Origin: Methanothermococcus sp. Ax23
Lineage (GTDB): Archaea > AGJL01 > Methanococci > Methanococcales > Methanococcaceae
NCBI RefSeq assembly: GCF_049075655.1
Contig: NZ_CP157522.1
Span: 800,001-864,000, forward strand
Length of the DNA stretch: 64,000 bases
Direction: 5' to 3'
Shown here: positions 8,512 to 12,856 of the stretch, in pieces
Position numbering within the stretch: position 1 is the first letter of the stretch
Layout of the letters: each line of letters opens with the position of its first letter
Notes under the pieces: generated by a model
What the model saw: only the letters and a program-made list of their open reading frames with translations
The model's database searches: none
Told to the model about the DNA's origin: nothing
Made by a program: the position numbers and the translations under genes

Positions 8512-9384
8512 TCAGTAAACACTTACAACTACACTACCAGCACCTTTGCTTTTTTGCCCACCTAATATTTTTATATTTTGTATTGCAGGAATTAATACTT
8601 CTTCAATTAAAAATTTCGCTCTTTTATCTTTATCGCCTTCTCTCCATTTTTCGAGCCATTTGTCAATTACAACATTGTTAATTTTTCTTGCATCTCCAAA
8701 TTGAATACTCTGCATTTCAAGGATTGGAGTTGATATTATAATTTCAATGTTTCCTTTAAATATAGAACCAGGTCCAACATGCTCCCCTTCAACTTTTGCC
8801 CCCTTAGCAGCAGTTCCTGTTTTTCTATCAATTCTTATGTTTGTTTGGTCTATCACGCCACCTTCATTTTCCATACAGAAATTTCCAATTCTTAAAAATC
8901 CCATAATTCCCGTAGCTCCCATAAAATAACATACTGGACATATCCCTAAATTTCCAGCATATATTTTATCTTCTTCAACTTTAACTTCACAATGTCCAAT
9001 ATATTTTTTCCCATCCATTTTTCCCCTATATGCCCATAATAATTCTTGTTCTGCTTTTGTTGGATTTGGGGTGGGTATGCAAGGTTTCAATAATTTATTC
9101 TCAATATTAAATATTTTAGCAAATTCATCAATTTTTTCAATAAACAATAGTTCTAATTCATGTCTTAGAGCTCCTTTAAAACTACTTGCAGGTATTGCAG
9201 GTCTTCCATTTATTTTAAACACAGGTGTTTTCTTTTCATTTAGTGGTGAAGGAGATGCTCCTATATGTAAAAAACTATCTTCACAAACCGTTATTGTTAT
9301 TGGAATCTCCAATACTTTAACTCTCCCCAAAGTTTTTTCATTAAGATTGATTTTATTTTCTCCAATATTTATTTCCATACTCAT
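8512..9384 (-). CDS. cas7: Cas7-group RAMP (Csm3-like)
   Basis: LHIGA, PAIPASSFKGALR, CPVCYFMG, IRIDRKTGTA and G-rich loop LGGQKSKGAG. Confidence 0.9.
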   Translation of the reverse strand: MSMEINIGENKINLNEKTLGRVKVLEIPITITVCEDSFLHIGASPSPLNEKKTPVFKINGRPAIPASSFKGALRHELELLFIEKIDEFAKIFNIENKLLKPCIPTPNPTKAEQELLWAYRGKMDGKKYIGHCEVKVEEDKIYAGNLGICPVCYFMGATGIMGFLRIGNFCMENEGGVIDQTNIRIDRKTGTAAKGAKVEGEHVGPGSIFKGNIEIIISTPILEMQSIQFGDARKINNVVIDKWLEKWREGDKDKRAKFLIEEVLIPAIQNIKILGGQKSKGAGSVVVSVY

Positions 9385-9968
9385 CTTATTACCTCCCAGT
9401 ATTTTTCTAATGAATTAAGTTTTCTAACAATGAAGGCTATTTTTTCTCTTGGAACACCTGCATCATATAATTCCATAGTATAATTAAGAACTTTTGTTAA
9501 TGCACGGTTTTTTGGGAATGGGGATTTTTCTATCTTATTCGTGAAGTATTCTATAACAATTGATTTTTCATATCTTTCAATAACCTTTCCGTAGTCATTC
9601 ATATTTGGTAATTTGCATTCCACAAGCCCATACCATTCAAGAGTTTCAAATAGTTGTTTTAAGAGATGTTGTTTGTTTTTGTATGAGTTTTTTAACCAGT
9701 TTGCTCGTTCTTCTGTTAATTCTTTAATTTTTGACTTCCTCCATCCTTTGGAATATTTATCTTTATGTTTTATTTGACTAATTCTATCATCAATCATATT
9801 TTCAAATTCATCTTTTTTTCCTTTTTCATATAATTCTTTAAGTTTTTTCCAGTCATCTCTCTCAAAGAGTTTTGGAATGGTATCTTTTTTATGACTATCG
9901 TAAGGACTATCGAATATATCTATATCATTTAAAACTTTTTTAAAAATCCCATCCATTTTACTCGTCAT
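9381..9968 (-). CDS. Putative small subunit (Cas11/Csm2-like), alpha-helical
   Basis: 195 aa, helical and charged; lies between the cas5-like and cas7-like genes and overlaps both. Call is by position only. Confidence 0.55.
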   Translation of the reverse strand: MTSKMDGIFKKVLNDIDIFDSPYDSHKKDTIPKLFERDDWKKLKELYEKGKKDEFENMIDDRISQIKHKDKYSKGWRKSKIKELTEERANWLKNSYKNKQHLLKQLFETLEWYGLVECKLPNMNDYGKVIERYEKSIVIEYFTNKIEKSPFPKNRALTKVLNYTMELYDAGVPREKIAFIVRKLNSLEKYWEVIR

Positions 9969-10605
9969 AATAAGTCCCCTCCATATTTTTTATTAATACA
10001 TCTGGAGCCTTAACTAAACTTCTTGGGAATAATGCCCTTTTATAAATTCCACTTACTAAATCTTTAGATTTAAACAAATAACCATATATTGGGGAAATTA
10101 TTTTAATCCCAAAATCCTCTGCTTCATCTTCAAATAACTTGACATTTAGAAATCCCTGTTTTAGTTTGGATTCAATTTCTTCAACTTTTGTAATTTTTGT
10201 TCTTCCAAATCCCTTACTTTTCAAAGCTCCCATCTGGAATTCAAAACCTTCTAATATTTCCTTATGTAATCCCTCTTCTTCTGCTCTTTTGAGTGGAATA
10301 TATACTTCTGCTTTAATATTATTATCTCCATTTTCTGGCTTTATATATTCGGTGAATAGGGGTATTTTAGAAGTTTCAAAAACTCTATCTCTAACTGAGC
10401 AGGTGAATTCATCAAATTCATAACTATCCTTTTCAAAAAATCCAACCGCAGGAACTTCAACACCAAAATAGTGTTTTAATGCCCCTTCAATTGTGGATGA
10501 AGGTATCGTTTCTTGGCATGGCCTATAAACACCCCCTTTTATTCTTTCACCAATGATAACAGACTCAATTTCAAGATGCAATTTAAGGAGTTTTACATTA
10601 GTCAT
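9958..10605 (-). CDS. cas5: Cas5-group RAMP (Csm4-like)
   Basis: IPSSTIEGAL and G-rich loop MGALKSKGFG; follows the cas10-like gene with a 1-nt gap. Confidence 0.75.
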   Translation of the reverse strand: MTNVKLLKLHLEIESVIIGERIKGGVYRPCQETIPSSTIEGALKHYFGVEVPAVGFFEKDSYEFDEFTCSVRDRVFETSKIPLFTEYIKPENGDNNIKAEVYIPLKRAEEEGLHKEILEGFEFQMGALKSKGFGRTKITKVEEIESKLKQGFLNVKLFEDEAEDFGIKIISPIYGYLFKSKDLVSGIYKRALFPRSLVKAPDVLIKNMEGTYYDE

Positions 10606-10606
10606 T

Positions 10607-12856
10607 TTACCCTCCCCTTTGTAGGATCCTACATAAATTCAAAATCTTAAATGGATGTATATTTTTTGTAAATAACTTATGCACCTCAGGGTATTTTTTC
10701 ATGTTGTTGAAAACTTCAATGTTTAAGTATATCTCAGAATTCAGTGAACTCTCTAGTTCAGTGAGTTTATATAAAAATGACTTTGATTTTATATCATTAA
10801 TGACTTTAAGTATATTATCTACTTCATTTTTTGAGTAGTTTTCGATGAATGCATTATGTTTCCTTACATTTAGGAAACTTTTTTCTTCTTTTTCAAAGAA
10901 CCTCCAATGTTCTCTAATTGGATATTTTATATTTGAAATGCTCAAAGATAAGTTTATTGGGCAGTCGTTATTTCCTTTAACATCTGGGAAATATTTATTA
11001 AAAACCCCTAAATATGTTTTGATAATTTCTTTGGTTAAGTCAGGAGAATATTTGAAAACACCTAACTCCTCGTAATCGGAGATTGGTTTTTTGATGTCAT
11101 TTCGGTCCTCAAATTTTTTCCAAAACTCTTTTAACATTTTTTCATAATCTTTATTAAAGTCAATTTGTGGTGCTAAGGGTCTAAATTCATTTAAAATCGA
11201 TGTTATATACTGTTTTTTATTTTTTATGATTTTTATCTTTTCCTCTAAGGAGTTCAATTTGTCATAAGCTTTCTTTGATTTTAATTTATTCTTTAGTTTC
11301 TTAATTTCCTTTTTAATCTTTTTAATTTTTTGAGATAATTCTTTTAACCTTTCTATTTCTTCATTATTTATACTACTACCATTTCTGGCTTTCTTCTTTA
11401 ATATTTCATGTTCTTTCTTTTTTTCATCTAATTCATTTTCTTTTTCTTTAAGTTTACCTATTTCCGATTTGATTGAATCATATTTACTAACTACTTTATC
11501 AAAAATTTTTGGATATATCTGTTCTATGTATTCTTCAAATGCTTTTATTAACCAGTCTTCTAATTTTCTTTGATCTATTGAAAACTTAAACCAACAAACT
11601 CTAACACTCTCTTTTTCCCACTTTTCTGCATATTCTCTAAATGGTTCTCCCATTTCTCTAATTTTCTGGCATTTTTTACATATCCATTCTTTAATATTTT
11701 CTTTTTCTCTTTCTATTCCTTTTCTTTGCTGACATATATCACAGATTGGAGGATTTATTTCATCAGGTATATCTGGTAAAAGATATTTTTTATAAATCTT
11801 AGCATCGATATTATTAATGCCTGATTTTCTTTTTTCGAGTATTTTTACATCTAATGTGGATTCAAACAGTTCTAACTTTGATACAATTTCATTCACTTCA
11901 ATATAAAATCCATAATCTAAAAATGGTTTAAATATCTCTTTTAAATCTTGATTTAATGGTAAAAATAATATAACAAAATCTGATGTAGCAAACAATATTT
12001 CATCTTCAAACTTATTTGTGAGATAATTTATAAGTTCATTTCTTTTTTTAAGTAAGTTTATATCACGTAATCTAACAAATGAATGAGGAAATCTAATCCA
12101 ACATTTTACTAATCTCCATTCCCAGTTATTTTTAGCATCATTAATTGTTTTAGCTTTTTCTTCATCATATTCGATAGTAATTGAACCATCAGATTCGATA
12201 TTAAATCTTGTGTTTTTCATTAGAACTCGATATATTTTACCAACTAATTCAACGTGGGCGTAAAGAGAAGTTATATTTCTTAAAATACTCTTATCTTCAG
12301 GAGTTAAAAGAAGATTTTCTTTATATTTATTTAAAAAATCTTTTCCAGAATTACAATTGTCAATTTCCTCAAATACTTTTTTCAAATTATCAATATTATT
12401 AAATGCAGCCCAATATTTTCCTGTTTTTTCCATATTGTCGTAGAATGTCGTATTCCAAGGTTTATAAACTCCTTTATTTAAATTAACATCTTCAAGGCTT
12501 ATTTCCTTTAATTCTTCAAACCCGTCCTTATCAGAAATTGCCCTCGATACTGACGACGCTATATTATCTGCAAGAATTAATAAAAAAACATAATATCTAC
12601 AAATTTCAGGAATTTCTTTATCCCATTCGTTTATATCCATGCGATTATCCACTTCATGATGATATTGCCCCAACCATGATGGTGATGATGATTTAGTGAG
12701 ATAATAACCTTTGTTTCGTAGTTCTTGAAAGTCAAAATTAACAAAGCAATGTCCCTTCCATGGTTTTCCATTGAGATTTTTAATATCTTCTTTAACTTTA
12801 TCATCAACCAACTTCCCAATATCATGTAATTCTGGAATAAATTGTTTATTTATCAT
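10607..12856 (-). CDS. cas10: Cas10-like large subunit: HD domain present, cyclase palm degenerate (type III-F-like)
   Basis: ELHDIGK...GH...YHH...LADNIAS...PEDK...SLYAH (Cas10-type HD), CDIC...CKKC Zn finger; no GGDD anywhere; heads a cas5-cas11-cas7 string. Confidence 0.8.
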   Translation of the reverse strand: MINKQFIPELHDIGKLVDDKVKEDIKNLNGKPWKGHCFVNFDFQELRNKGYYLTKSSSPSWLGQYHHEVDNRMDINEWDKEIPEICRYYVFLLILADNIASSVSRAISDKDGFEELKEISLEDVNLNKGVYKPWNTTFYDNMEKTGKYWAAFNNIDNLKKVFEEIDNCNSGKDFLNKYKENLLLTPEDKSILRNITSLYAHVELVGKIYRVLMKNTRFNIESDGSITIEYDEEKAKTINDAKNNWEWRLVKCWIRFPHSFVRLRDINLLKKRNELINYLTNKFEDEILFATSDFVILFLPLNQDLKEIFKPFLDYGFYIEVNEIVSKLELFESTLDVKILEKRKSGINNIDAKIYKKYLLPDIPDEINPPICDICQQRKGIEREKENIKEWICKKCQKIREMGEPFREYAEKWEKESVRVCWFKFSIDQRKLEDWLIKAFEEYIEQIYPKIFDKVVSKYDSIKSEIGKLKEKENELDEKKKEHEILKKKARNGSSINNEEIERLKELSQKIKKIKKEIKKLKNKLKSKKAYDKLNSLEEKIKIIKNKKQYITSILNEFRPLAPQIDFNKDYEKMLKEFWKKFEDRNDIKKPISDYEELGVFKYSPDLTKEIIKTYLGVFNKYFPDVKGNNDCPINLSLSISNIKYPIREHWRFFEKEEKSFLNVRKHNAFIENYSKNEVDNILKVINDIKSKSFLYKLTELESSLNSEIYLNIEVFNNMKKYPEVHKLFTKNIHPFKILNLCRILQRGG

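Follow-up and report, generated by a model that had tools for sequence, protein, structure and literature searches.

The DNA considered here is a 64,000-nucleotide stretch of the genome of Methanothermococcus sp. Ax23 (G000:C1:800001-864000; hereafter 'the window', by which we mean this whole stretch). The element in question is a four-gene CRISPR cassette, assigned by its profile matches to subtype III-F, which lies inside an operon that matches the defence system called BREX-Related Capture (BRC). The genome is archaeal, 1.67 Mb in size and 32% in G+C content. It carries the methanogen markers MCH, an archaeal DHNA and the archaeal ThrRS editing domain, and the nearest named matches to its proteins are from Methanococcus aeolicus. 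Read from its upstream end, the operon encodes a GNAT acetyltransferase, a TGT/DpdA-like protein, a 246-aa protein, the III-F cassette, a 169-aa protein, a 1245-aa protein, a PglZ-like protein and HerA. All of the genes and segments given coordinates of the window below are on the (-) strand.

The cassette opens with cas10f (10607..12856; 749 aa), which matches the PADLOC Cas10a/Cas10f profile at 1.3e-180. Next comes cas5f (9958..10605; 215 aa; PADLOC Cas5_IIIf, 1.3e-87), which begins 1 nt past the cas10f stop. It is followed by the gene for the small subunit, cas11f (9381..9968; 195 aa; PADLOC Cas11f, 1.2e-59), which overlaps cas5f by 11 nt, and finally by cas7f (8512..9384; 290 aa; PADLOC Cas7_IIIf, 1.8e-98). 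The RAMP domain of Cas7f (2.9e-19) is the sole Pfam match among the four proteins. An earlier reading made from the letters alone (hereafter the sequence-only reading) had described four coupled genes, with a gap of 1 nt at the first junction and overlaps of 11 and 4 nt at the next two, and the coordinates of the open reading frames (ORFs) agree with it at all three junctions. Its assignment of the cassette to a III-F-like effector also stands, given the subtype-specific PADLOC profiles and 53-60% identity to homologues from Thermotogae, Thermococcus and Thermoanaerobacter. The same gene order, cas10f-cas5f-cas11f-cas7f, is common to three Methanococcales loci and to metagenomic III-F loci. 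By these matches, the four-gene cassette is a subtype III-F effector with the composition Cas10f-Cas5f-Cas11f-Cas7f.

The intervals that separate the cassette from its neighbours are short. Upstream, 22 nt (12857-12878) lie between cas10f and the gene for the 246-aa protein, and downstream 12 nt (8500-8511) lie between cas7f and the first ATG of the 169-aa ORF. These lengths of 22 and 12 nt had been given by the sequence-only reading, and as ORF coordinates they are correct. However, the likely true start of the 169-aa gene is its second ATG (8478-8476), which is the start position in an alignment of relatives and also in a metagenomic contig that lacks the cassette (described below), and therefore the true downstream spacer is 33 nt.

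In Cas10f the HD nuclease motif is intact and a cyclase motif is missing. Its N-terminal HD motif reads ELHDIGK, and residues E9, L10, H11, D12, H36 and D97 are invariant in 19/19 aligned homologues, with H66 and H67 nearly invariant across the same 19 sequences. The four cysteines of a Zn finger (C372, C375, C393 and C396) are likewise invariant in all 19. A cyclase motif of the GGDD type was not found anywhere in the protein when searched with the pattern [GSA]G[DE][DE]. This combination, an intact HD motif and no GGDD, agrees with the account of III-F given in PMC11229360, by which the subtype has an HD domain and is without cyclase motifs and effectors. A coiled-coil insert of about 100 aa (residues ~445-545) is common to 6 of the 19 homologues. 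Relatives of Cas10f fall into about 160 clusters from Pseudothermotoga, Thermosipho, Thermococcus, Thermoanaerobacter, Archaeoglobales and a few Methanococcales, and identity to the homologues of the first four of these groups is 44-60%. Searches of the PDB by sequence with Cas10f and Cas7f as single queries returned nothing relevant.

Cas7f is the sole match in the genome to the RAMP family (PF03787), so no other type III system is present to compete for guides. Its family comprises 117 representatives recovered by exhaustive HMMER search, from which an alignment of 31 sequences was used. At the position where relatives have the Asp or Glu of a D-x-P motif, Cas7f has Lys52. The corresponding column contains 13 D, 6 E, 8 K, 2 H, 1 S and 1 N (n=31), and the eight sequences with Lys include the protein encoded in the window and most of its close relatives. 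When the family profile is aligned with a III-D Cas7 of solved structure, this column falls on the Asp of DNPIIK. We take the aligned Asp column to be the RNase residue of Csm3/Cmr4, and on the basis of the alignment we predict that the RNase activity of Cas7f has been lost. Since Lys is found in 8/31 sequences, including the closest, it is to be regarded as a trait of the lineage rather than as a sign of decay.

The genes on either side of the cassette belong to one operon. Directly upstream is the 246-aa gene (12879..13619), whose product is a putative DNA-binding protein that resembles BrxA and DUF4007(SspB). Its AlphaFold model (pLDDT 92) has as its top PDB folds SspB (6juf; E 0.014, TMq 0.64) and BrxA (7zge; E 0.025), with a probability of 1.00 and weak E-values. 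The protein has no Pfam or PADLOC match, and Pfam DUF4007 is matched by 0/10 of its relatives, and the gene is syntenic in related loci. Further upstream are a TGT/DpdA-like transglycosylase (13574..14566; 330 aa) and a GNAT acetyltransferase (14599..15204; 201 aa; Pfam Acetyltransf_1, 1.2e-7). The transglycosylase matches Pfam TGT at 1.8e-5 (24.5 bits, with a cut-off of 26.3) and has weak matches to DpdA (Pfam, 0.0057; NCBIfam, 2.9e-4). It is syntenic in most related loci, and the acetyltransferase is syntenic in L015 and L016, two of the related loci introduced below.

Downstream of the cassette, the 169-aa ORF (7990..8499) encodes a small P-loop NTPase of STAND/AAA+-like character in the position of a BrxB homologue. 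It has an invariant Walker A motif, GDGGVGKT (GxxGxGKT), and a conserved Asp. Its model (pLDDT 86.5) resembles the folds of DnaA, RFC, Cdc48 and Avs4, and its matches to Pfam nSTAND3 are weak. No BrxB chain is present among the fold matches of the model, and the STAND profile searched against the PDB retrieves generic P-loop proteins only. Thus, the homology of this protein to BrxB is taken from the published description of BRC cited below. The next gene (4269..8006; 1245 aa) encodes a BrxC-like P-loop ATPase with a coiled-coil C-terminal region, in which the Walker A residues G72, G74, K75, T76 and S77 and the Walker B residues D202 and E203 are invariant in 21 sequences. Four of 21 relatives match PF10923 (BrxC_BrxD; best E 4.6e-6) and the protein of the window itself does not. 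Pfam DUF6079 is matched by 0/21 relatives, and a profile search of the PDB gave coiled coils only.

The operon ends with two further genes. A short PglZ-like phosphodiesterase (3239..4198; 319 aa) has only weak matches, namely Pfam PglZ (E 0.011), Phosphodiest (0.0066) and NCBIfam BREX_PglZ_3 (5.5e-4, below the cut-off). Its family profile finds PDB entries at E 0.014 or weaker, including PglZ (9zn5) at E 0.099. The last gene encodes a HerA/FtsK-type ATPase (2077..3249; 390 aa; Pfam DUF87, the HerA central domain, 2.2e-14), with PADLOC matches to HerA (5.9e-28) and mad8 (3.1e-24) and 83-84% identity to HerA of Methanocaldococcus BRC loci.

BRC was described in NAR 2026 (gkag035; PMC12839542) as a system found in 45 taxa. 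Its parts are listed there as PglZ, a BrxC-like ORC/AAA+ ATPase, an active STAND NTPase, a DUF4007 protein, HerA/FtsK, GNAT and TGT; HerA/FtsK is reported in all loci, and GNAT and TGT in a subset. The same source treats the DUF4007 and STAND parts as homologues of BrxA and BrxB. By gene set and gene order, as far as sequence and predicted folds can tell, the operon that flanks the cassette matches BRC and not classical BREX. The earlier description of the flanking genes as brxA-like and brxB-like is therefore reasonable, in that the two genes hold the positions of the BRC parts described as homologues of BrxA and BrxB and the first has fold matches to SspB and BrxA, but it misplaces them if canonical BREX is meant, which would bring PglX and BrxL with it. 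Other candidate assignments were set aside. Classical BREX was rejected because the flanking genes match no BrxA, BrxB, BrxC, PglX or BrxL model in Pfam, PADLOC or NCBIfam. MADS was rejected because HerA alone matches mad8, Ppl (the gene after HerA) matches mad3 weakly, and no other mad gene was found. The Dpd system was rejected because the similarity to TGT/DpdA is weak and there is no DpdB or DpdC. No methyltransferase, PAPS reductase, kinase or Lon-like gene is present among the operon genes scanned.

The most informative evidence concerns the junction at which the cassette sits. Using a profile of the large ATPase, we collected 75 related loci from species-representative genomes, with hosts that include Methanocaldococcus, haloarchaea, Chloroflexota, cyanobacteria, Armatimonadota and others. 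The BRC order TGT, BrxA-like, STAND, BrxC-like, PglZ, HerA recurs among them across archaea and bacteria, and by tblastn a III-F gene is found in 0/75. Both the BrxA-like and the STAND gene are present in 31 of these loci, and in 25 of the 31 the two are no more than 42 nt apart or overlap. In the nearest genomes, those of Methanocaldococcus indicus and Methanocaldococcus sp. 16A (L015 and L016), the gap is 12 and 8 nt, respectively. The remaining six junctions (L053, L055, L074, L080, L083 and L084) measure 0.2-1.1 kb and hold small ORFs of 81-190 aa, and thus the BrxA/STAND junction seems to tolerate added genes. The STAND protein itself is lengthened to 477-487 aa in three other loci (L025, L026 and L028).

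An empty version of the site can be read at the level of single bases. A contig of 435 nt and depth 75 from a hydrothermal-vent metagenome (X4) links window position 8486 directly to position 12885, with 19 other letters between them, and differs from the window at 9/176 and 10/240 positions of its two flanks (~95% identical). On the coding strand this contig has a stop codon, 13 nt, GGGAAATT and then the ATG that corresponds to the second ATG of the 169-aa ORF. Because the contig joins 8486 to 12885, the inserted segment can be delimited as 8487..12884, a length of 4398 nt. It comprises the final codon of the upstream gene with its stop, a leader of 22 nt that carries the ribosome-binding site GGAGGGAGGGG, the four cas genes and a 25-nt trailer. 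Thus, the insert brings its own ribosome-binding site and the ribosome-binding site of the downstream STAND gene is kept intact. The sequence-only reading had proposed a module inserted into an existing operon and had suggested a search for relatives with an empty brxA-brxB junction. Such relatives are found in Methanocaldococcus and in the X4 contig, and both strongly support the proposal.

The same metagenome provides an indication of timing. The empty-site allele has a depth of 75-89, and other X4 contigs that are III-F-like (85-94% identical to window positions 8637-12177) have a depth of 2.6-4.3. A related cassette thus circulates in a minority member of the community. Because a ~95% identical empty-site allele is the high-depth form in the vent metagenome, the insertion appears to be a recent event. 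The BrxC-like ATPase of BRC is found in G000 alone among 23 genomes of its family. A Methanococcus aeolicus genome has a BrxC-like protein (P0005) that is 85% identical and only 716 aa long, and may be truncated. The M. aeolicus BRC is probably without the cassette, because a search with Cas10f gave no homologue above 71% identity. An 8-nt sequence, TTGTAAGT, is present at the stop codon of the BrxA-like gene and again 8 nt before the cas7f stop. We do not count this pair as evidence, since it is probably due to chance or microhomology.

The cassette is found elsewhere in other surroundings. A search for Cas7_IIIf finds it in 3/40 genomes of Methanococci. The copy in G006, which is Methanocaldococcus lauensis by the name on its protein match, has 80% DNA identity over 4387 nt and is flanked by Dph2/NYN and CobQ housekeeping genes. 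In G034 the cassette comes after genes for an HKD-Snf2 helicase and a type IIG methylase, and PheRS is next after it. Upstream regions of 330 nt (G006) and ~870 nt (G034) precede these two cassettes. The likeness between G006 and the window appears to reach through the 22-nt leader to the breakpoint, a short stretch over which it may be due to chance. The cassette is therefore a module able to sit in differing genomic contexts. Searches with Cas10f gave no match among plasmids (72,556 records), phages (50,697 records) or the viral contigs of IMG/VR.

Any CRISPR guides for the cassette would have to come from outside the window. A generic k-mer array finder detects no repeat-spacer array in the 64 kb, as the sequence-only reading had stated, and the CRISPR repeat of the genome has 0 copies in 800001-864000 when up to 7 mismatches are allowed. 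There is also no cas6 or cas1 in the window, and the only matches in the genome are at C1:145-147 kb. The possibility had been raised that an array and cas6 are located just past the left edge, and what is found there is Ppl and then ThrRS. The suggested search of the whole genome for arrays and cas6 does locate both, at distances of 350-660 kb. Array 1 (C1:147.8-151.2 kb) adjoins a type I-D locus (Cas10d, Cas7d, Cas5d, Cas3d, Cas4, Cas1, Cas2 and Cas6), the two together occupying C1:145-151 kb, and a second array is found at 1.16 Mb. Array 1 has ~53 repeats, array 2 has ~41, and there is a two-repeat mini-array, for a total of ~96 repeats, all of a single 30-nt repeat. Array 2 (C1:1163583-1166275) is an orphan that adjoins an ISC1217-like transposase fragment, and the mini-array (C1:1183078-1183174) lies 17 kb further on.

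The only cas6 of the genome (G000:C1:146703-147405; L004 14703-15405) is interrupted by a +1 frameshift, an extra T in a T-run near codon 175, such that the +1 frame carries the C-terminal G-rich loop. The frameshift may be a homopolymer sequencing error or the gene may be a real pseudogene. The other two genomes with the cassette, G006 and G034, likewise carry a cas6, and their repeats are of the G000 family. G006 has in addition a mini-array (L012:30-128 = G006:C1:188030-188128) on the opposite strand ~115 nt downstream of cas7f, in which a spacer of 40 nt separates a degenerate repeat from a good one. This good repeat has two mismatches to the repeat of G000 and is less like the repeat of the main array of G006 itself. 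The spacer of the mini-array has no match longer than 16 nt in the sequences compared.

Metagenomic loci point in a similar direction. Of 31 III-F loci of this kind, four have an array on the same contig. Most of these contigs are shorter than 7 kb, and so a lack of BRC genes or arrays on them counts for little as evidence. Three loci with long upstream flanks were picked for examination (L103, L104 and L106), and in all three the cassette is located directly behind type I cas genes (Cas7b, Cas5b, Cas3b, Cas1, Cas4, or Cas3'/Cas3''). In L103 a Cas3'' HD gene overlaps the start of cas10f, and in L104 an array starts ~220-235 nt past cas7f. Subtype III-F may habitually ride on a type I crRNA (CRISPR RNA) supply, which fits the statement in PMC8036902 that type III loci without cas6 rely on Cas6 in trans. 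With a type I-D locus, cas6 and arrays elsewhere in the genome, it is plausible that the guides for the cassette in the window are supplied in trans. The sequence-only reading overstated the case when it treated an array-less orphan as remarkable. According to the legend of Extended Data Fig. 2 in PMC12669027, most III-F loci are without arrays, and the reference locus Tlet_0097-0100 (PMC8036902) is of the same kind.

Taken together, these observations lead us to consider it likely that an ordinary III-F module was recently inserted, without a promoter of its own, into the ~20-nt spacer between the BrxA-like and STAND genes of a BRC operon, and that its expression, its guides and its action on targets are all to be understood in these terms. 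The cassette would be transcribed by read-through from the promoter of the BRC operon, as is suggested by the lack of room for a promoter or terminator and by the downstream gene having kept its own ribosome-binding site. The complex would then load crRNAs that the Cas6 of the I-D locus had produced in trans from the I-D arrays, and pairing with a target would activate the HD nuclease of Cas10f without signalling by cyclic oligoadenylates. Target RNA would probably be left uncut by Cas7f because the Asp position is occupied by Lys. III-F and BRC would act independently, in which case the nesting reflects the turnover of a defence island and not a designed composite.

Several observations weigh against this explanation, or at least against parts of it. 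The insertion is strikingly clean, in that no promoter was brought in, the downstream ribosome-binding site is kept and the ORFs are intact, and selection for co-expression would give the same pattern. With regard to the mechanism of insertion, no terminal repeats, direct or inverted, and no target-site duplication rise above the AT-rich background around the insert. The only cas6 of the genome is split by a frameshift, and if this is real then no crRNAs would be matured. Without the acidic residue, Cas7f may behave differently from the type III systems that have been characterised. Lastly, no III-F complex was found in the PDB by sequence, and the mechanism proposed above is drawn by analogy.

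Given the unusual tightness of the junctions, one might ask whether the cassette was simply mis-joined into the operon during assembly. Nothing else speaks for a chimera of this type, and we regard it as almost certainly wrong. X1 and X2 each have contigs that span the two junctions with 0 differences, and an X3 contig bridges the cas7f-side junction; its cas10f-side junction, which has no bridge of at least 31 letters on both sides, was left uncounted. These contigs come from three studies, although X1 may be the source sample. It follows from the X1 and X2 contigs, which are independent, that the arrangement did not arise in assembly. It is also highly improbable, in our view, that the complex is guided by non-CRISPR RNAs or acts independently of guides. 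There is indeed no array within 350 kb of the cassette and our literature search found no functional study of III-F, but the host genome contains a compatible repeat family (~96 repeats), the closest homologous cassette, that of G006, adjoins a two-repeat mini-array of the same repeat family, and four of the 31 metagenomic relatives have arrays on the contig, with the three examined located behind type I cas operons. Another suggestion is that the module is inert cargo, a recent hitch-hiker that is useless in its host because of a broken cas6 or unmet crRNA needs and that will decay. The frameshift in cas6, for which the genome has no second copy, would fit this idea, as would the lack of a local array, the missing catalytic acidic residue of Cas7f and the recency of the insertion. 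However, the four ORFs are intact, the residues of the HD and Zn-finger motifs are conserved, the frameshift, being located in a homopolymer run, may have come from faulty sequencing, and Lys in Cas7f is a lineage trait shared by 8/31 family members including the closest. We therefore find this suggestion doubtful.

Functional coupling of III-F to BRC is possible but unsupported, and the question is whether the nesting should be read as a product of selection. In a functional composite, BRC would have taken up III-F as its RNA-guided sensor or nuclease arm, for example to give a HerA/PglZ capture machine an HD nuclease or a means of sequence-specific recognition, with co-transcription under selection. 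A clean insertion with no promoter that preserves the polarity of the operon is how co-option would be expected to look. A 22-nt leader with a strong ribosome-binding site follows the BrxA-like stop directly, the STAND ribosome-binding site is kept, all four cas and seven BRC ORFs are intact with lengths like those of relatives, and the arrangement is identical in the X1, X2 and X3 contigs. The junction also tolerates added genes, as is evident from the small ORFs present in 6/31 loci. Against these points, the pairing is confined to a single lineage, being found in 0/75 BRC-type loci and in 0/31 metagenomic III-F loci (mostly short contigs), the other two Methanococcales cassettes sit outside any BRC, and the ~95% identical empty allele at depth 75, compared with 2.6-4.3 for the III-F-like contigs, indicates a recent event. 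Moreover, the X1-X3 contigs show 0 differences and so may derive from one strain. On balance we think a composite of this kind unlikely. A more specific version holds that III-F has been domesticated as an RNA-guided arm of BRC, such that the BRC promoter drives it, host crRNAs mark the transcripts or DNA of an invader, and the HD nuclease or HerA/PglZ finishes the task; this we consider quite improbable. Recent insertion of an ordinary III-F module is thus the explanation that we carry forward.

The operon is part of a larger island. On the same strand, 50 nt downstream of HerA, is a gene for Ppl (3..2027, continuing to G000:C1:799418; L006 14418-17027), an 869-aa protein that combines a PHP nuclease with an ABC/SMC-like ATPase. 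It matches PADLOC Ppl over its full length at 7e-57 as well as Pfam PHP, SMC_N and AAA_21. Except for one short match at the level of chance, Ppl was not found by tblastn in the 75 related BRC loci, and it is a separate single-gene defence system. ThrRS follows Ppl, such that the island consists of Ppl, BRC and the nested III-F cassette and is bounded by ThrRS. At the other end of the operon, genes for a BcrAD/BadFG-type ATPase (15170-15856; Pfam 3.2e-23) and an HGD-D-like protein (15863-16798; Pfam 4.5e-27) overlap the GNAT gene. The two are 73-78% identical to their counterparts in L015 (5524-7277) and L016 (5671-7286), with which they are syntenic. The HGD-D-like gene is found in 6/40 Methanococci genomes, including the BRC carriers G003 and G015. 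This pair falls outside the seven published BRC parts and co-occurs with the BRC island of Methanococcales. Its products might provide GNAT and TGT with an acyl or base donor.

Given that III-F is a formally classified subtype and that its array-less loci are already familiar, it seems appropriate to ask what is gained from the description of one more cassette. The filled site and the ~95% identical empty site form a natural before-and-after pair at base resolution, and from this pair one can see how a CRISPR effector cassette with no promoter of its own can enter a different defence operon and leave it unbroken. Through this locus, III-F is also placed in a lineage of methanogens with genetically tractable relatives. 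With a single repeat family and a single cas6 in the genome, the hypothesis of guides in trans is directly testable. If III-F and BRC cooperate, the arrangement would represent a new kind of composite immunity, and if they do not it still illustrates clearly how modules turn over in defence islands. Should the domesticated arm described above prove to be real, the BREX family would have its first operon with a built-in CRISPR effector, and BRC operons in general would have a cargo slot at the BrxA/STAND junction.

Comparison with known systems helps to define what is familiar and what is new. Type 1 BREX (brxA-brxB-brxC-pglX-pglZ-brxL) shares with the operon in the window the relative order of a BrxA-like fold, a small P-loop protein, a BrxC-like ATPase and a PglZ-like protein, whereas the operon has no PglX or BrxL among the genes scanned and has TGT, GNAT and HerA instead. 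The likeness to BRC is closer, as counterparts of the seven components listed in PMC12839542 can be assigned in the flanking operon, those of PglZ, the BrxC-like ATPase and the STAND NTPase tentatively. It departs from that description in being interrupted by III-F, in the coupled HGD-D-like and BcrAD-like genes added in the Methanococcales version, and in leaving Pfam DUF6079 and DUF4007 unmatched. The main text of PMC12839542 mentions no CRISPR link to BRC, and its supplementary list may include the Methanocaldococcus loci or the locus in the window. Our literature search found no paper with both type III-F and BREX, or with both III-F and PglZ.

Among CRISPR systems, III-G and III-H resemble the cassette in having an inactivated cyclase, a retained HD, a Cas7 without the catalytic Asp and no adaptation genes (PMC12669027), and III-G has been proposed in the same source to recruit crRNAs in trans. 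In contrast, the best profiles for the cassette are specific to III-F and it has a separate cas11f gene, whereas III-H merges Cas11 into Cas10 and III-G uses Csx26. Type IV-C has a Cas10-like large subunit with an HD nuclease and a Cas7 that has lost its RNase activity, and has been proposed as a reductive derivative of III-F, which is in turn viewed as a stepping stone from type III to type IV (PMC13676074). IV-C uses other Cas7 and Cas5 families, and no type IV profile match in the window exceeds the III-F matches. The closest counterpart is the III-F reference locus (Makarova classification) of Thermotoga lettingae (Tlet_0097-Tlet_0100; PMC8036902), which has the same four genes, a retained HD and no cyclase motif. 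III-F loci are also alike in being without an array, cas6 and adaptation genes (PMC12669027 legend; PMC11229360). The cassette in the window differs from this reference in having no intergenic region of its own and lying inside another operon, in the ~100-aa coiled-coil insert of Cas10f (6/19 homologues) and in the Lys of Cas7f at the Asp of D-x-P (8/31). It is therefore a known system in an unusual nested context. The novelty is not in the kind of system but in the nesting, together with an empty site that can be read at base resolution.

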